A stretch of DNA of 9,525 bases from a virus (lineage: Duplodnaviria; Heunggongvirae; Uroviricota; Caudoviricetes). The stretch lies in the IMG/VR virus record IMGVR_UViG_2563366807_000006, one strand, 5' to 3'. The notes under the pieces are model-generated. The model made no database searches. It worked only from the letters and a program-made list of their open reading frames with translations, and was not told the origin of the DNA. Below are positions 1-9,525 of this stretch, in pieces; positions within the stretch are counted from its first letter, which is position 1, and every line of letters begins with the position of its first letter. A program made the position numbers and the translations under genes.

Positions 1-621
1 GAGCCGGAGGCGTATTTTCGTATCGCACCGGAAGACTGGCTGCGGGCAGAGATGCAGGGGGAGATTGTGGCACTGGTCCACAGTCATCCCGGTGGGCTGC
101 CCTGGCTGAGCGAGGCTGACCGGCGGCTGCAGATAAAAAGCGCACTGCCCTGGTGGCTGGTCTGCCGGGGTGACATTCACAAATTCCGCTGTGTGCCACA
201 TCTGACGGGACGGCGCTTTGAGCACGGGGTGACGGACTGTTACACGCTGTTCCGGGATGCTTATCATCTGGCGGGGACTGAAATGCCGGATTTTCATCGC
301 GAGGATGACTGGTGGCGCAACGGTCAGAACCTTTACCTGGACAATATGGCGGTCACCGGCTTTTACCGGGTGCCCCTGTCCTCTGCACAGGCGGGCGATA
401 TTCTGCTGTGCTGCTTTGGTGCTTCGGTACCGAACCATGCCGCCATTTACTGCGGCAACGGTGAGCTGCTTCACCATCTGCCTGAACAACTGAGTAAACG
501 GGAGAGGTATTCCGAAAAATGGCAACGACGAACGCATTCTGTCTGGCGTCACCGCCACTGGCACGCATCTGCCTTCACGGGGATTTACAACGATTTGGCC
601 GCCGCCTCAGCCTGTATGTGA
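1..621 (+). CDS. K: Phage tail tip assembly protein K (5'-partial); JAB/MPN metalloprotease-like N-domain plus NlpC/P60-like C-domain
   Basis: Frame 1 is open from nt 1 (EPEAYFRIAPEDWLRAEMQGEIVALVHSHPGGLPWLSEAD...) to TGA at 619-621, so the true start is upstream of the window (the ORF track begins at an internal Met at 52). A perfect JAMM motif HxHx7Sx2D (HSHPGGLPWLSEAD) sits at nt 79-120. The C-terminal half has a Cys (GVTDCYTLF) and a His (PNHAAIY) as expected for an NlpC/P60 fold. The overall sequence is recognisably lambda gpK-like from memory. Confidence 0.88.
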   Translation, partial: EPEAYFRIAPEDWLRAEMQGEIVALVHSHPGGLPWLSEADRRLQIKSALPWWLVCRGDIHKFRCVPHLTGRRFEHGVTDCYTLFRDAYHLAGTEMPDFHREDDWWRNGQNLYLDNMAVTGFYRVPLSSAQAGDILLCCFGASVPNHAAIYCGNGELLHHLPEQLSKRERYSEKWQRRTHSVWRHRHWHASAFTGIYNDLAAASACM

Positions 622-1199
622 ACACGGCAGCGGAAGCCATCCGCGCGCTGTCGTTACAGGTGCCGGGCTTTCGCCGTCAGATGAACGAAGGCTGGTACCA
701 GATACGTATTGCCGGTTATGACACGGCACCGGAGGCGGTGTACGCCCGTCTTCACGAACAGCTGGGTGAGGGAACGGTCATCCATATTGTGCCGCGACTG
801 GCCGGGGCCGGAAAGGGTGGACTGCAGATTGTGCTGGGGGCGGCAGCCATCGTGGGCTCTTTCTTCACTGCCGGGGCATCAATGGCGTTATGGGGTTCAG
901 CCCTGGCAGCCGGTGGTTTTTCTGCCACCACGATGCTGTTTTCACTTGGAGCCAGCATGATTCTGGGCGGTGTGGCCCAGATGCTGGCCCCGAAGGCAAA
1001 AACACCGGATTACCGCGCAACGGATAACGGCAGACAGAACACGTACTTTTCCTCGCTGGATAACATGATTGCCCAGGGGAACCCGATGCCGGTGCCTTAC
1101 GGGGAAATGCTGGTTGGCTCCCGCCGTATATCCCAGGACATCAGCACCCGTGATGAAGGCGGGGGCGGAAAGGTCGTGGTTATCGGGCGGCAGGGGTAA
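519..1199 (+). CDS. I: Phage tail assembly protein I
   Basis: 226-aa ORF starting at ATG 519 and overlapping the 3' end of K by 103 nt in another frame, the same K/I overlap as in phage lambda. Sequence (ARICLHGDLQRFGRR..., Gly/Ala-rich hydrophobic middle, ...NTYFSSLDNM..VPYGEM..GSRRISQDISTRDEGGGGKVVVIGR) is recognisably lambda gpI-like. Stop TAA at 1197-1199. Confidence 0.9.
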   Translation: MATTNAFCLASPPLARICLHGDLQRFGRRLSLYVNTAAEAIRALSLQVPGFRRQMNEGWYQIRIAGYDTAPEAVYARLHEQLGEGTVIHIVPRLAGAGKGGLQIVLGAAAIVGSFFTAGASMALWGSALAAGGFSATTMLFSLGASMILGGVAQMLAPKAKTPDYRATDNGRQNTYFSSLDNMIAQGNPMPVPYGEMLVGSRRISQDISTRDEGGGGKVVVIGRQG

Positions 1200-1213
1200 A
1201 AAGAATAAAAAAA

Positions 1214-1245
1214 TCCCGCAGTGATCGCGGACAGGAACTGCGGGA
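1214..1245 (-). terminator. Candidate intrinsic terminator read on the minus strand
   Basis: Inverted repeat TCCCGCAGT (1214-1222) / ACTGCGGGA (1237-1245) with a 14-nt loop. On the + strand it is preceded by an A-run (AAAAAGAATAAAAAAA, 1197-1213), which is a T-run immediately following the hairpin when read on the minus strand. No T-tract follows it on the + strand. Confidence 0.3.
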
Positions 1246-1407
1246 GAGTTACGAAGATTAAGTGTAAGGAATTATTCTTATATCACGACAAAAAAATTAA
1301 CGCAGAGAAATTATACGCGCCACAGTCAGTTTGTGAAAATGTGAAGATATTCAGAATTTTTATGCCATTACCGGTTTTAACCAACAGGATTATCGGTGGG
1401 CATGAAA

Positions 1408-1445
1408 GAAAACCCCGGTATCTGCTGATACCGGGGTTTCTCTTT
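1408..1445. terminator. Strong GC-rich stem-loop with T-rich flanks on both sides (terminator-like, orientation ambiguous)
   Basis: AACCCCGGTAT (1411-1421) - CTGCTG loop - ATACCGGGGTT (1428-1438) is a perfect 11-bp stem. It is followed on the + strand by TCTCTTT and preceded by GAAAGAAAA, which is T-rich when read on the minus strand. Confidence 0.35.
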
Positions 1446-1542
1446 AGCATGGCAGAAATGTGTTTCATGCTTTTCGGGCGAAGGATATCCGACTTCTGTA
1501 CGGAATGGCAAGTGGCGGTTAATTTATTCAGGGGAAGGCTGT

Positions 1543-4500
1543 ATGGGAAAAGGTGGCGGTAAGGCACACACGCCTCGTGAGGCGAAGGATAATCTCAAAT
1601 CCACGCAGATGATGAGCGTGATTGATGCGATTGGTGAGGGACCGATAGAAGGTCCGGTGAAGGGACTGCAGAGTATCCTGGTGAACAAAACCCCGCTGAC
1701 GGACACGGACGGTAATCCCGTGATACACGGTGTGACGGCGGTCTGGCGCGCCGGGGAGCAGGAGCAGACACCACCGGAAGGCTTTGAGTCCTCCGGTGCT
1801 GAAACCGGACTGGGCGTGGAAGTGACGAAGGCAAAACCGGTGACGCGCACCATTACGTCCGCGAACATTGACCGCCTGCGGGTTACCTTCGGGGTGCAGT
1901 CACTGGTGGAGACCACCTCAAAGGGTGACCGTAACCCGGCATCCGTCCGCCTGCTGATTCAGTTACAGCGTAACGGTAACTGGGTGACAGAAAAGGACGT
2001 CACCATTAACGGCAAGACCACCTCACAGTTCCTGGCCTCGGTGATTCTGGATAATCTGCCTCCCCGGCCCTTTAACATCCGGATGGTCAGGGAGACGGCG
2101 GACAGCACCACGGACCAGCTGCAGAATAAGACGCTGTGGTCGTCATACACCGAAATCATCGATGTGAAACAGTGCTACCCGAACACGGCCATTGTGGGGC
2201 TGCAGGTGGATGCGGAGCAGTTCGGCGGCCAGCAGATGACGGTGAACTACCATATCCGCGGTCGCATCATCCAGGTGCCGTCAAACTATGACCCGGAAAA
2301 ACGCACGTATAGTGGTATCTGGGACGGCAGTCTGAAACCGGCATACAGCAACAACCCGGCCTGGTGCCTGTGGGACATGCTGACTCACCCGCGCTACGGC
2401 ATGGGAAAACGTCTGGGGGCGGCGGATGTGGACAAGTGGGCGCTGTATGCCATCGGGCAGTACTGCGACCAGACGGTCCCGGATGGTTTCGGGGGGACCG
2501 AGCCGCGGATGACCTTTAATGCGTACCTGGCACAACAGCGTAAGGCGTGGGACGTTCTCAGTGATTTCTGCTCTGCGATGCGCTGTATGCCGGTATGGAA
2601 CGGTCAGACGCTGACGTTCGTTCAGGACCGCCCGTCGGATGTGGTGTGGCCGTACACCAACAGCGATGTGGTGGTGGATGATAACGGCGTGGGATTCCGC
2701 TACAGCTTCAGTGCCCTGAAGGACCGGCACACGGCGGTGGAGGTGAATTACACCGACCCGCAGAACGGCTGGCAGACCTCCACGGAACTGGTGGAAGACC
2801 CGGAAGCCATACTGCGCTACGGACGCAACCTGCTGAAGATGGACGCGTTCGGCTGTACCAGCCGCGGTCAGGCCCACCGTGCCGGACTGTGGGTGATAAA
2901 GACCGAACTGCTGGAAACGCAGACGGTGGATTTCACGCTCGGGTCTCAGGGGCTGCGTCACACACCCGGTGACATCATTGAAATCTGTGATAATGACTAT
3001 GCCGGGACCCTGACCGGCGGACGTGTCCTGTCCATCGATGCCGCCAGCCGTACCCTGACGCTGGACCGGGAGGTGACACTGCCGGAGACCGGCACGGCCA
3101 CTGTTAATCTGATTAACGGCAGCGGTAAGCCGGCGAGTGTGGACATCACCGCACACCCCGCGCCGGACCGGATACAGGTCAGTACCCTGCCTGATGGTGT
3201 GGAGACATACGGTGTGTGGGGACTCTCCCTGCCGTCACTGCGTCGTCGCCTGTTCCGCTGTGTCTCCATCCGGGAAAACACGGACGGCACCTTTGCCATC
3301 ACGGCGGTGCAGCACGTACCGGAAAAAGAAGCCATCGTGGATAACGGTGCCCGCTTTGAGCCGCAGTCAGGTTCCCTGAACAGCGTCATCCCACCGGCAG
3401 TGCAGCACCTGACGGTGGAGGTGAGCGCAGCTGACGGCCAGTATCTGGCGCAGGCGAAATGGGACACGCCGCGGGTGGTGAAGGGTGTGCGCTTCAGTCT
3501 GCGCCTGACCAGTGGTAAGGGAACGGATGCCAGACTGGTGACCACCGCCATCACCGCAGACACGGAGCACCGTTTCAGCGGCCTGCCACTGGGGGAATAC
3601 ACCCTGACGGTGCGGGCGATAAACAGCTGCTACGGCATGGGAAAACGTCTGGGGGCGGCGGATGTGGACAAGTGGGCGCTGTATGCCATCGGGCAGTACT
3701 GCGACCAGACGGTCCCGGATGGTTTCGGGGGGACCGAGCCGCGGATGACCTTTAATGCGTACCTGGCACAACAGCGTAAGGCGTGGGACGTTCTCAGTGA
3801 TTTCTGCTCTGCGATGCGCTGTATGCCGGTATGGAACGGCCAGACGCTGACGTTCGTTCAGGACCGTCCGTCGGATGTGGTGTGGCCGTACACCAACAGC
3901 GATGTGGTGGTGGATGATAACGGCGTGGGTTTCCGCTACAGCTTCAGTGCCCTGAAGGACCGGCACACGGCAGTGGAGGTGAATTACACCGACCCGCAGA
4001 ACGGCTGGCAGACCTCCACGGAACTGGTGGAAGACCCGGAAGCCATACTGCGCTACGGACGCAACCTGCTGAAGATGGACGCGTTCGGCTGTACCAGCCG
4101 CGGTCAGGCCCACCGTGCCGGACTGTGGGTGATAAAGACCGAACTGCTGGAAACGCAGACGGTGGATTTCACGCTCGGGTCTCAGGGGCTGCGGCACACA
4201 CCCGGTGACATTATTGAAATCTGTGATAATGACTATGCCGGGACCCTGACCGGCGGACGTGTCCTGTCCATTGATGCTGCCACCCGCACCCTGACGCTGG
4301 ACCGTGAGGTTACCCTGCCGGAGACAGGTACATCGGCGGTGAACCTGATTAACGGCAGCGGTAAGCCGGTGAGTGTGGACATCACCGCACACCCCGCGCC
4401 GGACCGGATACAGGTCAGTACCCTGCCTGATGGTGTGGAGACATACGGGGTGTGGGGACTCTCCCTGCCGTCACTGCGCCGTCGCCTGTTCCGCTGTGTC

Positions 4501-4746
4501 TCCATCCGGGAAAACACGGACGGCACCTTTGCCATCACGGCGGTGCAGCACGTACCGGAAAAAGAAGCCATCGTGGATAACGGTGCCCGCTTTGAGCCGC
4601 AGTCAGGTTCCCTGAACAGCGTCATCCCACCGGCAGTGCAGCACCTGACGGTGGAGGTGAGCGCAGCTGACGGCCAGTATCTGGCGCAGGCGATGTGGTG
4701 GTGGATGATAACGGCGTGGGATTCCGCTACAGCTTCAGTGCCCTGA
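1543..4746 (+). CDS. J: Host specificity protein J (central tail fibre / tail tip), N-terminal portion with an internal tandem duplication; reading frame ends after a frameshifting junction at about 4690-4693
   Basis: ATG 1543 is preceded by GGGGAAGG (RBS). The N-terminus [39 protein letters not shown]... and downstream blocks ([70 protein letters not shown]) are recognisably lambda gpJ-like. The ORF runs 1067 aa; the last 18 codons ([17 protein letters not shown]) are out-of-frame read-through of the third repeat copy. Confidence 0.85.
2393..3628 (+). repeat. J internal repeat unit, copy 1 (complete, 1236 bp = 412 codons)
   Basis: Sequence from GCTACGGCATGGGAAAACG (2393) through ...GCGGGCGATAAACAGCT (3628) recurs starting at 3629 at about 99% identity. 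At protein level it spans [15 protein letters not shown]...[12 protein letters not shown]. Confidence 0.9.
3629..4692 (+). repeat. J internal repeat unit, copy 2 (partial, unit positions 1 to about 1064; in frame with copy 1)
   Basis: Offset of 1236 nt from copy 1. The junction retains an extra in-frame GCT (Cys) codon, giving ...[14 protein letters not shown].... The few nucleotide and amino-acid differences from copy 1 (e.g. AASRTLT vs AATRTLT; [21 protein letters not shown] vs [21 protein letters not shown]) show the copies are not identical. It ends at ...GQYLAQA. Confidence 0.88.
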
Positions 4747-5655
4747 AGGACCGGCACACGGCGGTGGAGGTGAATTACACCGACCCGCAGAACGGCTGGC
4801 AGACCTCCACGGAACTGGTGGAAGACCCGGAAGCCATACTGCGCTACGGACGCAACCTGCTGAAGATGGACGCGTTCGGCTGTACCAGCCGCGGTCAGGC
4901 CCACCGTGCCGGGCTGTGGGTGATAAAGACCGAACTGCTGGAAACGCAGACGGTGGATTTCACGCTCGGGTCACAGGGGCTGCGTCACACACCCGGTGAC
5001 ATCATTGAAATCTGTGATAACGACTATGCCGGGACCATGACCGGCGGACGTGTCCTGTCCATCGATGCCGCCAGCCGTACCCTGACGCTGGACCGGGAGG
5101 TGACACTGCCGGAGACCGGCACGGCCACTGTTAATCTGATTAACGGCAGCGGTAAGCCGGCGAGCGTGGCCATCACCGCACACCCCGCGCCTGACCGGAT
5201 ACAGGTCAGCACCCTGCCGGATGGTGTGGAGACATACGGTGTGTGGGGACTCTCCCTGCCGTCACTGCGTCGTCGCCTGTTCCGCTGTGTCTCCATCCGG
5301 GAAAACACGGACGGCACCTTTGCCATCACGGCGGTGCAGCACGTACCTGAAAAAGAAGCCATCGTGGATAACGGGGCCCGCTTTGAGCCGCAGTCAGGCA
5401 CCCTGAACAGCGTTATCCCACCGGCAGTGCAGCACCTGACGGTGGAGGTGAGCGCAGCTGACGGCCAGTATCTGGCGCAGGCTAAATGGGACACGCCGCG
5501 GGTGGTGAAGGGCGTGCGCTTCAGTCTGCGCCTGACCAGTGGTAAGGGAACGGATGCCAGACTGGTGACCACCGCCATCACCGCAGACACGGAGCACCGT
5601 TTCAGCGGCCTGCCACTGGGGGAATACACCCTGACGGTGCGGGCCATTAACAGCT
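4693..5655 (+). repeat. J internal repeat unit, copy 3 (partial, unit positions about 274-1236; -1 frame relative to the upstream J frame)
   Basis: Begins at ATGTGGTGGTGGATGATAACGGC, corresponding to copy 1 position about 2666, and continues to the unit end (..TVRAINS) before passing directly into the unique J 3' region ([12 protein letters not shown]...). The offset from copy 1 is 2027 nt, which is not a multiple of 3. It carries its own variants (AGTMTGG, ASVAIT, SGTLNSV). Confidence 0.88.
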
Positions 5656-7262
5656 ACGGCCAGCAGGGCGAACCTGCGACCACCACCTTCCGGATTGCCG
5701 CACCGGCAGCACCGTCGCGGATTGAGCTGACGCCGGGGTATTTTCAGATAACGGCGGTCCCGCGTCTTGCGGTGTATGACCCGACGGTACAGTTTGAATT
5801 CTGGTTCTCAGAAAAACGCATCACGAACACGGCACAGGTGGAAAAATCTGCCCGTTATCTGGGGACCGGCAGTCAGTGGACTGTCCAGGGGAGCCGGATT
5901 AAGCCGGGGACGGATTTCTGGTTTTACGTGCGAAGCGTCAACCTGGTGGGAAAATCTGCTTTTGTGGAAGCCAGCGGGCAGCCCAGCAATGATGGTGAAG
6001 GGTATCTGGAAATTTTCCGGGGGCTGATAGATGAGACGCTTCTGGGCCAGGCACTGAAAGAGCGCATTGATGCTTCAGCGCTGCGTACGGAGGTCACGCA
6101 ACTGGAAGAAGACATCCGTCAGCGGATGGACACGGATATCGCAGAAGTGACCCGGAAAATCGGGAAGGCGGAAAACAGCCTCACGCAGCTGGTTGCGAAA
6201 AAGAATGAGGACCAGACACTGGCCATCGCGCAGGTGAGCCAGAAAGTGGACCGGGTGAGCAGTGAAATCTCACAGACTGTCAGCCAGGGGCAGTCAGAAA
6301 ACGCCCGACAGATAGCACAGGTCCGCCAGTACGTGGATAAAAAAGGGAGTGAAATTACCTCGACCACGGATAAAAAGCTGGGTGACCAGGCCGTGACCAT
6401 ACAGCAAATCCAGCGGGTTCAGTCAGACACGCGCAATGAGCTGAATGCCATGTATATGCTGAAGGTGCAGAAAACAAAAAACGGTATTCCCTATGTGGCC
6501 GGGATTGGTGCGGGGATTGAGGATGTTGATGGTCAGACGCTGAGCAGTATTCTGCTGCAGGCGGACCGTATCGCGATGATTACCCCGGAGAATGGCAACA
6601 CCACGCCGCTGTTTGTGGCGCAGGGGAATCAGCTGTTCATGAACGACGTGTTCCTGAAGCGACTGTTTGCGGTGAGCATCACGTCATCCGGCAATCCTCC
6701 TACGTTTTCCCTGACGCCGGATGGCAGGCTGACAGCCCGCAATGCGGATATCAGTGGAGCCATCACGGCGAATACCGGCACGCTCAATAATGTCACCATT
6801 AACGAGAACTGTGTCATCAGAGGGAAACTGTCTGCAAACCAGATTGAAGGCGATCTCGTTAAAACAGTGGGTAAGGCTTTCCCCCGTGACTCCCGTGCAC
6901 CGGAGCGTTGGCCATCAGGAACCATTACCGTCAGGGTTTATGACGATCAGCCGTTTAACCGGCAGATTGTTATTCCGGCGGTGGCTTTCAGCGGTGCCAG
7001 ACATGAGCGGGAGAACAGCGATACTTATTCGTCATGCCGCCTGATAGTACGGAAAAACGGTGCTGAAATTTATAACCGTACCGCGCTGGATAATACGCTG
7101 ATTTACAGTGGTGTTATTGATATGCCTGCTGGTCGCGGCCACATGACGCTGGAGTTTTCTGTATCAGCATGGTGGGTAAATGGCTGGTATCCCACAGCAA
7201 GTATCAGCGATTTGCTGGTTGTTGTGATGAAGAAAGCCACTGCAGGCATCACGATTAGCTGA
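4695..7262 (+). CDS. J: Host specificity protein J, C-terminal portion (repeat copy 3, Fn3-like region, coiled-coil region, C-terminal receptor-binding region), 'cassette A'; probably the downstream half of a frameshifted J rather than an independent gene
   Basis: 855-aa ORF opening at GTG 4695, 2 nt after the copy 2/copy 3 junction, with no strong RBS (only a weak AGG at 4688-4690). Contains [21 protein letters not shown]...[10 protein letters not shown]...[16 protein letters not shown] (Fn3-like), a long heptad-like coiled-coil stretch (about 6040-6450), and a C-terminal block ...[24 protein letters not shown]...[29 protein letters not shown]... ending ..[10 protein letters not shown]; TGA at 7260-7262. 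Confidence 0.8.
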
Positions 7263-7683
7263 ATTTTATAACCCCAATACGGGCGCCAGAAATGGCGCCT
7301 TTTTTATTGCAGAAAAGCGAGAGGTAATTATGCGTAAAGTTTGTGCAGCCATTTTGTCCGCAGCCATCTGTCTGTCCGTATCCGGTGCGCCTGCATGGGC
7401 GTCTGAACATCAGCCCACACTGAGCGCGGGGTATCTTCATGCCCGTACGAACGCTCCCGGCAGCGATAATCTGAACGGGATTAACGTGAAATACCGTTAT
7501 GAGTTTACGGACGCGCTGGGGCTGATTACGTCCTTCAGTTATGCCAATGCTGAGGATGAGCAAAAAACGCACTACAGCGATACCCGCTGGCATGAAGATT
7601 CCGTGCGTAACCGCTGGTTCAGCGTGATGGCGGGGCCGTCTGTACGCGTGAATGAATGGTTCAGCGCGTATGCGATGGTGGGT
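5503..7683 (+). repeat. Segmental duplication unit A (J 3' portion - terminator - lom 5' portion), period about 2181 bp
   Basis: 5503-5750 is near-identical to 7684-7930, and about 6800-7683 is about 90-95% identical to 8760-9525 (the 7281-7307 terminator and lom start recur at 9243-9269 and 9292). The central part is divergent with a net 219-nt length difference. Confidence 0.85.
7281..7307 (+). terminator. Rho-independent terminator downstream of J cassette A
   Basis: GGCGCCA (7282-7288) - GAAA - TGGCGCC (7293-7299) followed by TTTTTTATT. Confidence 0.8.
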
Positions 7684-7689
7684 TGGTGA
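7330..7689 (+). pseudogene. lom: Lom/Ail-family outer membrane protein, 3'-truncated at codon 119 by the duplication junction (lom copy A)
   Basis: RBS GAGAGG 6 nt upstream of ATG 7330. Signal-peptide-like N-terminus MRKVCAAILSAAICLSVSGAPAWA, followed by ...LNGINVKYRYEFTDALG...RNRWFSVMAGP..SAYAM, which matches Lom/Ail beta-barrel proteins as I recall them. Full-length Lom is about 200 aa; here TGA is created at 7687-7689 exactly where J-derived sequence (GTGAAGGGCGTGCGCTTCAGT) begins. Confidence 0.75.
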
Positions 7690-9224
7690 AGGGCGTGCGC
7701 TTCAGTCTGCGCCTGACCAGTGGTAAGGGAACGGATGCCAGACTGGTGACCACCGCCATCACCGCAGACACGGAGCACCGTTTCAGCGGCCTGCCGCTCG
7801 GGGAATACACCCTGACGGTGCGGGCGATAAACAGCTATGGCCAGCAGGGTGAACCTGCCACCACCACCTTCCGGATTGCCGCACCGGCAGCACCGTCGCG
7901 GATTGAGCTGACGCCGGGCTATTTTCAGATAACCGCAACGCCACATCTTGCCGTTTATGACCCGACGGTACAGTTTGAGTTCTGGTTCTCGGAAAAGCGG
8001 ATTGCGGATATCAGGCAGGTTGAAACCGCAGCCCGCTATCTTGGCTCGGCGCTGTACTGGATAGCTGCCAGTATCAATATCAAACCGGGCCATGATTATT
8101 ATTTTTATATCCGCAGTGTGAATACTGTTGGCAAATCGGCATTCGTGGAGGCTGTCGGTCGGGCGAGCGATGATGCGGAAGGTTACCTGGATTTTTTCAA
8201 AGGAGAAATCGGGAAAACACATCTGGCCCAGGAGCTGTGGACGCAGATTGATAACGGTCAGCTTGCGCCGGACCTGGCTGAAATCAGGACGTCCATTACG
8301 AATGTCAGCAATGAAATCACGCAGACCGTCAATAAAAAACTGGAAAATCAGAGTGCGGCAATCCAGCAGATACAGAAAGTTCAGGTTGATACAAATAATA
8401 ACCTGAACAGCATGTGGGCCGTGAAACTGCAGCAGATGCAGGACGGACGCCTTTATATTGCGGGTATCGGTGCCGGTATTGAGAATACGCCAGCAGGAAT
8501 GCAGAGTCAGGTGCTGCTGGCGGCAGACAGGATTGCGATGATTAATCCTGCGAATGGCAACACAAAGCCGATGTTTGTTGGTCAGGGCGATCAGATATTT
8601 ATGAATGAAGTGTTCCTGAAATATCTGACGGCTCCCACCATTACCAGCGGCGGTAATCCTCCGGCATTTTCCCTGACACCGGACGGGCGGCTGACGGCGA
8701 AAAATGCCGATATCAGCGGTAACGTGAATGCGAACTCCGGGACGCTCAACAACGTCACGATTAACGAGAACTGTCGGGTTCTGGGAAAATTGTCCGCGAA
8801 CCAGATTGAAGGCGATCTCGTTAAAACAGTGGGCAAAGCTTTCCCCCGGGACTCCCGTGCACCGGAGCGGTGGCCATCAGGAACCATTACCGTCAGGGTT
8901 TATGACGATCAGCCGTTTGACCGGCAGATTGTTATTCCGGCGGTGGCATTCAGCGGCGCTAAACATGAGAAAGAGCATACTGATATTTACTCCTCATGCC
9001 GTCTGATAGTGCGGAAAAACGGTGCTGAAATTTATAACCGTACCGCGCTGGATAATACGCTGATTTACAGTGGTGTTATTGATATGCCTGCCGGTCACGG
9101 TCACATGACACTGGAGTTTTCGGTGTCAGCATGGCTGGTAAATAACTGGTATCCCACAGCAAGTATCAGCGATTTGCTGGTTGTGGTGATGAAGAAAGCC
9201 ACTGCAGGCATCACGATTAGCTGA
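7656..9224 (+). CDS. J C-terminal paralogue fragment, 'cassette B' (Fn3-like region + shorter coiled-coil + C-terminal receptor-binding region); lacks the J N-terminal domains; silent cassette or remnant
   Basis: 522-aa ORF. The first 11 codons (from ATG 7656) are an alternate-frame read of the lom-A 3' end with no RBS. From about 7684 onward it encodes [62 protein letters not shown]..., near-identical to cassette A and repeat copies 1 and 3. The middle ([92 protein letters not shown]) differs from cassette A and is closer to my recollection of phage lambda J. Ends ..[13 protein letters not shown] at 9222-9224. Confidence 0.7.
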
Positions 9225-9242
9225 ATTTTATAACCCAGATAC

Positions 9243-9269
9243 GGGCGCCAGAAATGGCGCCTTTTTTAT
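9243..9269 (+). terminator. Rho-independent terminator downstream of J cassette B
   Basis: GGCGCCA (9244-9250) - GAAA - TGGCGCC (9255-9261) followed by TTTTTTATT; identical to the 7281-7307 element. Confidence 0.8.
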
Positions 9270-9291
9270 TGCAGAAAAGCGAGAGGTAATT

Positions 9292-9525
9292 ATGCGTAAA
9301 TTATGTGCTGTTATTTTGTCCGCAGTAGTCTGGCAGGTCGCCGCTGCTACGCCAGCGAGTGCAGCAGAACATCAGTCCACGCTGAGCGCGGGGTATCTCC
9401 ATGCCTCGACGAACGTTCCCGGTAGTGATGATCTGAACGGGATTAACGTGAAATACCGTTATGAGTTTACGGACGCGCTGGGGCTGATTACGTCCTTCAG
9501 TTATGCCAATGCTGAGGATGAGCAA
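9292..9525 (+). CDS. lom: Lom/Ail-family outer membrane protein (lom copy B), 3'-partial at window end
   Basis: GAGAGG RBS then ATG 9292. MRKLCAVILSAVVWQVAAATPASAAEHQSTLSAGYLHASTNVPGSDDLNGINVKYRYEFTDALGLITSFSYANAEDEQ..., open to the window end. The signal peptide differs from lom-A while the mature region is near-identical. Confidence 0.85.
   Translation, partial: MRKLCAVILSAVVWQVAAATPASAAEHQSTLSAGYLHASTNVPGSDDLNGINVKYRYEFTDALGLITSFSYANAEDEQ

Follow-up and report, generated by a model that had tools for sequence, protein, structure and literature searches.

Is the lom gene that breaks off after 119 codons in a prophage tail region of Escherichia coli KTE1 a real pseudogene of that chromosome, or did it arise in the making of the sequence? 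The stretch of DNA analysed (9,525 nt; hereafter, the window) contains this truncated gene, lom-A, in which J sequence takes over from lom sequence within the reading frame. Truncated lom-A was considered to be an assembly or library chimera, and not a real pseudogene of the KTE1 chromosome, with a probability of about 0.8. A preliminary description of the window had reported the truncation and interpreted it as the junction of a duplication; its observation was confirmed and its interpretation was partly supported.

Structure of the window

The window was a lambda-like tail gene block, with the 3' part of K followed by I, J and lom. Self-comparison and comparison with natural loci resolved it into four segments on the plus strand, separated by three same-strand back-jumps. 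Segment A (1-3628) contained K', I and J nt 1-2086, segment B (3629-4693) contained J nt 851-1915, segment C (4690-7683) contained J from nt 1121 through its stop codon and the first 354 nt of lom, and segment D (7684-9525) contained J from nt 1934 through its stop codon and the first 234 nt of lom. The 3' part of tail gene K (1-621, plus strand; C40/NlpC-P60 peptidase) was cut by the contig start, and was followed by tail assembly gene I (618-1199, plus strand; Lambda_tail_I). An Rfam scan of the window returned no hits.

Joint 1 (3628/3629, entered as 3626-3631; plus strand) led from J nt 2086 back by 1236 nt to J nt 851 and remained in frame. It had GCT on both sides and lay beside an unused 8-nt homology (GCTACGGC). 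Joint 2 (4690-4693, plus strand) led from J nt 1915 back by 795 nt to J nt 1121; the two sides had 4 nt in common (GCGA), and the J frame was shifted. Joint 3 (7683/7684, plus strand) led from lom nt 354 back by 2181 nt to J nt 1934 and was blunt (0 nt of microhomology). Because long alignments with 99.9% identity flanked joint 3 on both sides, it was not a chance pattern. All three non-homologous joints fell within 4.1 kb, and each broke J or lom.

No single ORF in the window contained the full domain series of lambda J (TipJ). The chimeric J ORF (1543-4746, plus strand; 1067 aa, EOW94394.1) consisted of J nt 1-2086 and J nt 851-1915, followed by a frameshift after joint 2, and encoded FNIII-A, two Phage-tail_3 and two Ig_J domains, the distal domains being absent. 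The J 3' portion that followed (4694-7262, plus strand) extended from J nt 1125 to the stop codon. The J 3' fragment downstream of joint 3 (7684-9224, plus strand) extended from J nt 1934 to the stop codon, and its 512-aa ORF from GTG 7686 (EOW94397.1) encoded distal domains only (partial Ig_J, Ig_J_second, Phage_Tail_Tip and Ig_GpJ_C).

The lom-A reading frame and its product

The lom-A ORF (7330-7689, plus strand; EOW94396.1) was present in the deposited sequence as previously reported, with an ATG at 7330, a TGA at 7687-7689 and a product of 119 aa. It consisted of native lom nt 1-354 and of TGG TGA contributed by J. Identity to lom, in comparison with a natural J-lom locus 99.9% identical (L004), ran through 7683 (lom nt 354 of 600). 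Identity to J restarted at 7684, which is J nt 1934 (TGGTGAAGGGC), and from 7684 on the window read TGGTGAAGGGCGTG..., which is J nt 1934 onward in the alignment to L002 and L004. The J-derived part, previously set to begin at 7690, begins at 7684. The final TGG (7684-7686) and the stop codon TGA (7687-7689) were the J bases gTG GTG AAG read in the lom frame, in agreement with the claim that J-derived bases at a novel lom/J joint create the stop codon. The two junction strings had been quoted correctly (GGGTTGGTGAAGG in the window and GGGTGGTGAAGG in J). Microhomology-mediated joining, which had been proposed from them, did not agree with the joint, which was blunt, with 0 nt assignable to either side; a join via the nearby GGGTG homology would give one T fewer than observed.

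Of the 199 residues of Lom, 81 (41%) were absent from lom-A, including the closing strands of the barrel, close to the 40% estimated earlier. Over residues 1-118, lom-A was identical to the Lom (199 aa) that prophages of complete E. coli genomes encode. The match of lom-A to the Pfam profile Ail_Lom (PF06316) covered profile positions 1-118 of 199 (E = 5e-76), and the intact allele (L004) spanned positions 1-199. The alignments of lom-A to OmpX and to lambda Lom covered only residues 4-84 of 148 and residues 1-125 of 206, respectively. A signal peptide was read directly off the translation of lom-A (MRKVCAAILSAAICLSVSGAPAWA, then SEHQ) and was the same in the intact allele. The C-terminal strand with an aromatic end that closes an eight-strand barrel was missing from lom-A; the intact allele ended in ...GIGYRF.

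If joint 3 were real, the lom-A product would have the signal peptide and roughly the first four and a half strands, without the closing strands. From what is known of beta-barrel assembly, lom-A could not form a barrel; as judged from its sequence, a complete barrel cannot be expected of it. Entries of about 117-119 aa in the same protein cluster were labelled partial, and no bona fide short Lom was found among the cluster entries; a full-length Lom of about 119 aa in databases had been named beforehand as evidence against the truncation.

A terminator-like hairpin (7281-7300, plus strand) was located between J and lom-A, with a near-identical copy at about 9243-9262 upstream of the second lom. 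The first 234 nt of this second gene, lom-B (9292-9525, plus strand), were identical to a lom of the type of strain 4/1-1 and were cut by the contig end. A lom start was present at 9292 as described, but lom-B belongs to another allele (85% identical) and is incomplete, since the window ends within it.

Alleles and natural counterparts

From 4694 to 7683, segment C was 99.9% identical to J-lom of strain 50579417, and the same identity was found for its J 3' portion (4694-7262). Segment D (7684-9525) was 99.9% identical to J-lom of strain 4/1-1, and the J 3' fragment within it was of the 4/1-1 type from J nt 2046 on (99.9%). Segments B (99.6%) and D (99.9%) matched the single J gene of strain 4/1-1, in which they are 18 nt apart. 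Segments C and D were only 79-92% identical to each other. The two J-lom copies of the window, previously taken to result from the duplication of one DNA stretch, were different natural alleles, each with its own counterpart in a prophage of a complete E. coli genome; they were arranged head-to-tail on the same strand, as in a tandem duplication, but they were not near-identical copies of the same DNA and shared no bases at 7683/7684. Each allele-specific piece was present once, and the number of passes through each J segment equalled the number of distinct haplotypes; therefore, no material was truly duplicated.

The KTE1 segments differed from the natural alleles only by bases of the co-resident allele, with no private variants. 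Reciprocal swaps were observed at window 207 and 1677-1797 between segment A and the contig before it, at J nt 1062-1194 in segment B versus J nt 1152/1194 in segment C, and at J nt 1944 in segment D. Identical sequence of at least 95 nt delimited every allele swap. At joints 2 and 3, the same allele was found immediately on either side, and the other allele entered at the next long identical stretch. Both immediate flanks of joint 2 were of the 4/1-1 type, and the diagnostic variants nearest to joint 3 (lom nt 350 and J nt 1944) were both of the 50579417 type. Such same-allele flanks at joints 2 and 3 are also expected from a genuine tandem duplication.

In segment A, the allele state between J nt 1405 and 2086 changed within 4-27 nt, and the best natural match was 98.9% identical. 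The possibility that only two alleles are present and that segment A is graph noise was rejected, as switching within 4-27 nt is impossible for a K=96 graph with two haplotypes. Because the allele state switches at this scale, segment A from J nt 1405 on must be a third real haplotype, which brings the J copies of KTE1 to three or more. Fine-scale mosaicism is also seen among natural J alleles.

Contig and scaffold context

The window corresponded exactly to positions 2672-12196 of locus L006, one contig of scaffold KE136575.1 (GCA_000407665.1, E. coli KTE1, 2013 draft), bounded by a 10-N gap before and a 4690-N gap after. The preceding contig contained another K-I-J' (J nt 1-1061) with a 50579417-type allele; because K-I-J' is already present there, the scaffold itself returns from J to K across the first gap. 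The contig after the 4690-N gap started at lom nt 376 and ran into the tail-fibre gene, with 99.8% identity to the 50579417-type locus and 0 mismatches to the intact allele between lom nt 376 and 600. In strain 4/1-1, ISEc12 interrupts lom behind nt 380 and has duplicated its target ACTTT (nt 376-380), and the KTE1 contig began at the first base of that target duplication. The idea that this contig is the missing 3' end of lom-A was weakened, as its start coincides with the ISEc12 insertion site and the contig may follow an insertion sequence instead. Its start no longer counts strongly for lom-A being an artefact or for a real joint.

The last 95 nt of the window (9431-9525) were exactly identical to lom-A 7469-7563, with a mismatch immediately before. 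The last difference between lom-A and lom-B was at lom nt 139, and 139 + 95 = 234, where the contig ends. The contig started at the first base after an allele difference, and the preceding contig ended 1 nt before such a site. Ninety-five nt is K-1 for K=96. Judging by this 95-nt signature, and as a Broad KTE draft, KTE1 was presumably assembled with ALLPATHS-LG. ALLPATHS-LG forms unipaths at K=96, glues together perfect repeats of at least K, and fills gaps in the unipath graph with jumping reads whose pairing is ignored (PMC3483556, Ribeiro et al. 2012).

An origin of the internal joints at de Bruijn branch points was rejected, as none of them was located at a variant-defined branch point of a K=96 graph. 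It was also considered unlikely that a scaffolder had abutted overlapping contigs of different alleles, as the same allele immediately flanks joints 2 and 3.

Searches for the joints and their products

A 181-nt query spanning joint 3 was compared by BLAST with 5,426 complete E. coli genomes and 50,697 phage records, and no record matched 80% or more of its length. Exact searches for the joint-3 string in IMG/VR, the GTDB species representatives and the JGI metagenomes were also negative. In complete E. coli genomes, neither joint 1 nor joint 2 was matched in one piece; two-piece matches of at least 80% to these joints were dismissed as ordinary J genes whose halves had been joined by the search tool. 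The 119-aa, 512-aa and 1067-aa products were each found on this one contig only, and the 1067-aa chimeric J stood alone in its 90% cluster in a set of about 15 billion proteins. A literature search on E. coli KTE1 and MUGA00000000 found nothing useful.

Among 8000 scored relatives of J, only the KTE1 chimera (2481 bits) and P0032 stood out. P0032 scored 1659 bits versus at most 1651 for the rest, and was 1442 aa long versus about 1157-1230 aa in the other listed hits. It originated from draft contig MUGA01000174.1 (GCA_002154285.1; L008), which contained two diverged head-to-tail repeats inside J, followed by a 117-aa patchwork lom fragment, a blunt back-jump from that fragment into a J 3' fragment of another allele, and an intact lom. 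The patchwork of L008 was weighed against lom-A being an artefact, but it could reflect a recurrent artefact as well as a recurrent real event. The J-lom'-J'-lom pattern recurs in drafts of multi-prophage strains, for which a technical and a biological cause could account alike.

Genuine disruptions were found in complete genomes, namely the ISEc12 insertion in lom of strain 4/1-1 and a deletion of about 1 kb in J of strain DLI.5a.

Discussion

The marks of an assembly chimera were found in the window: it is a draft contig that ends at repeat boundaries of the k-mer size of the assembler, it switches phase between co-resident alleles without private variants, and its joint is absent from independent assemblies. 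KTE1 would contain at least three lambdoid prophages, whose K-I-J-lom regions would be 95-99% identical. A K=96 graph assembler would have glued copies sharing at least 96 identical bases and walked from copy to copy, and the phase switches would be present because it walked from one copy into another. At three places, the assembler would have bridged onto sequence located 0.8-2.2 kb upstream in the same copy, and the bridge from lom nt 354 to J nt 1934 would have put J bases in the lom frame as TGG TGA.

Simple mis-threading of the graph is insufficient to explain the internal joints, because they are not at variant-defined branch points; therefore, some real molecule, genomic or library-made, carried each joint. 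As a guess, the joints may have come from reads crossing the circularisation point of a jumping (mate-pair) library, which would give a blunt back-jump of 0.8-2.2 kb on the same strand and in the same molecule. The mosaic structure, the contig boundaries, the K-1 signature, the phase switches and the uniqueness of the joints were observed directly; we infer that the three joints lack genomic read support.

Alternatively, the rearrangement may be real and lom-A a genuine pseudogene, which was considered unlikely. End-joining or a template switch would then have duplicated the 2181 nt from J nt 1934 to lom nt 354 head-to-tail, as an illegitimate event in one KTE1 prophage, and the allele switches further along would be assembler noise. 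Such an event agrees with the joint being part of a deposited contig, since in a K=96 graph its 96-mers must come from some read (PMC3483556), and with the nearest diagnostic variants belonging to the same allele on both sides, as in an intramolecular duplication. The location of the internal joints away from graph branch points, the damage to J and lom seen in complete genomes (strains DLI.5a and 4/1-1) and the similar layout of an independent draft (L008) also argue for it. However, it would need three blunt back-jumps in three paralogous J copies, or one real joint and two artefacts, and the scaffold contained no extra copy, with as many passes per J segment as distinct haplotypes. Furthermore, the joints and the chimeric proteins occurred in no other assembly despite the dense sampling of E. 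coli clones, and the surrounding scaffold was demonstrably tangled. Even if joint 3 were real, the prophage would be defective, because the upstream J is broken by the joint-2 frameshift.

The layout might otherwise be functional, with the J 3' fragment as a promoter-less alternative receptor-binding cassette expressed by coupled translation or swapped with the upstream J to change host range. This fragment has the complete set of distal domains of J (Ig_J_second, Phage_Tail_Tip and Ig_GpJ_C) and is of another specificity type, the sequence on either side of it closely resembles the upstream copy (97% across 156 nt; 85-92% across about 1 kb), its GTG start at 7686 overlaps the stop codon TGA of lom' (7687-7689), and a similar gene order exists in L008. 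The joint-2 frameshift leaves no working upstream J to diversify, though, the layout was not conserved in any other genome, and all the evidence for an artefact applies to it too. A cytoplasmic J fragment is not known to have a role. A functional cassette was regarded as very improbable. If the lom'/J' joint were both real and recurrent, a second, divergent J module behind a truncated lom might act as a silent host-range cassette, of which L008 would be another instance; this was regarded as highly improbable.

An assembly or library chimera remains the preferred explanation of lom-A. The preliminary description had lom-A as probably non-functional; such a lom more likely belongs to the assembly than to the bacterium itself. 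If lom-A is an artefact, three E. coli KTE1 proteins in GenBank (EOW94394.1, EOW94396.1 and EOW94397.1) are chimeras, and J-lom duplications and pseudogenes in short-read drafts of multi-prophage strains should be checked against the reads before they are given a biological meaning. If the joint were real, lom-A would be an unremarkable pseudogene of one strain, within a defective prophage. The locus would be of wider interest only if the stacking of J receptor-binding modules turned out to be recurrent and usable for host-range switching.

Comparison with known systems

The window resembles a repeat-copy misassembly by ALLPATHS-LG (K=96) in that contigs end at K-1 or at allele differences, alleles switch only across at least 95 nt of identity, and scaffold gaps border the contig, which belongs to a prophage region present in several copies. 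Unlike in plain repeat gluing, the three internal joints of KTE1 are back-jumps away from graph branch points.

Contig MUGA01000174.1 has, like KTE1, a J-lom'-J'-lom patchwork unique to one assembly; it differs from KTE1 in its breakpoints and alleles, in the two internal deletions of its lom fragment and in having no N gaps nearby. The disruptions in strains 4/1-1 and DLI.5a affect the same genes as lom-A in the same kind of prophage. In these finished genomes they consist of an inserted transposon, with a target duplication of 5 bp, and of a simple deletion, respectively, whereas the disruption in KTE1 is a back-jump from lom to J found in one draft contig only.

As in lambda-like prophages, lom-A is located directly 3' of J and a terminator-like hairpin. 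The Ail-Lom-OmpX family (PF06316; PDB 9wso for Lom, 1qj8 for OmpX and 3qra for Ail), which includes phage lambda lom, consists of eight-stranded outer-membrane beta-barrels. Unlike these barrels, lom-A ends at the equivalent of OmpX residue 84 of 148 and lacks the second barrel half as well as the ...GYRF at the C-terminus.

Joints and Haplotypes Within J

Two more abrupt back-jump joints were found in the window, at 3628/3629 and at 4690-4693, both within J. Owing to these joints, J nt 1121-1915 (numbered within the natural gene) was passed through three times in the window, and J was divided into a chimeric 1067-aa ORF and an 855-aa ORF. A third J haplotype occupied window 2947-3628 (J nt 1405-2086). 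It changed from one of the other two allele states to the other within 4-27 nt and had no private variants; its best match among 5,426 complete genomes was 98.9%. This haplotype may be a genuine third allele from another prophage, or it may have arisen through read correction.

The contig upstream of the window in the E. coli KTE1 draft scaffold KE136575.1 (L006 1-2661) carried another K-I-J', which includes J nt 1-1061 and belongs to the 50579417-type allele, the natural J-lom type of strain 50579417. A run of 10 N (L006 2662-2671) lay between it and the K'-I-J of the window, and the scaffold thus sets two prophage copies in series. Within the window, I was separated from J by 343 nt (1200-1542), a stretch with no gene annotation, as also in natural prophage loci of complete E. 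coli genomes (L002 and L004), and with no Rfam match.

Junctions and Insertion at lom

At window 7686-7689 (GTGA), the annotated J-fragment ORF of 512 aa (EOW94397.1) begins with a GTG that overlaps the stop codon of the truncated lom copy. This overlap, translational coupling in appearance, is a by-product of the joint at 7683/7684, where lom copy A abuts J bases. In each of the two copies (window 7281-7300 and about 9243-9262), the spacer separating the J stop codon from the start of lom contained a hairpin resembling a terminator, with GGGCGCCAGAAATGGCGCC ahead of a T run. For the protein itself, a solved structure of the lambda type exists as 'Outer membrane protein lom' (PDB 9wso chain C, 206 aa).

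Past a 4690-N gap in the KTE1 scaffold, the next contig began at L006 16887 with lom nt 376. In strain 4/1-1 (L003), where lom is interrupted by an ISEc12, lom nt 376 is the first base beyond the right end of the element, and the 5-bp target duplication ACTTT lies at L003 7984-7988 and 10570-10574. One KTE1 lom gene probably carries the same ISEc12.

Comparison With Other J-lom Loci

An independent draft contig (MUGA01000174.1, GCA_002154285.1; L008 6001-12724) encoded a J of 1442 aa containing two diverged repeats, after which a 117-aa patchwork lom fragment was followed by a blunt back-jump into the 3' part of a J from another allele, and then by an intact lom. In the complete genome of E. 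coli DLI.5a (L001 7071-9759), J had lost about 1 kb internally and was annotated as two products, an incomplete TipJ and a DUF3672 protein. The DLI.5a locus, in a finished genome, is a case of genuine J decay.
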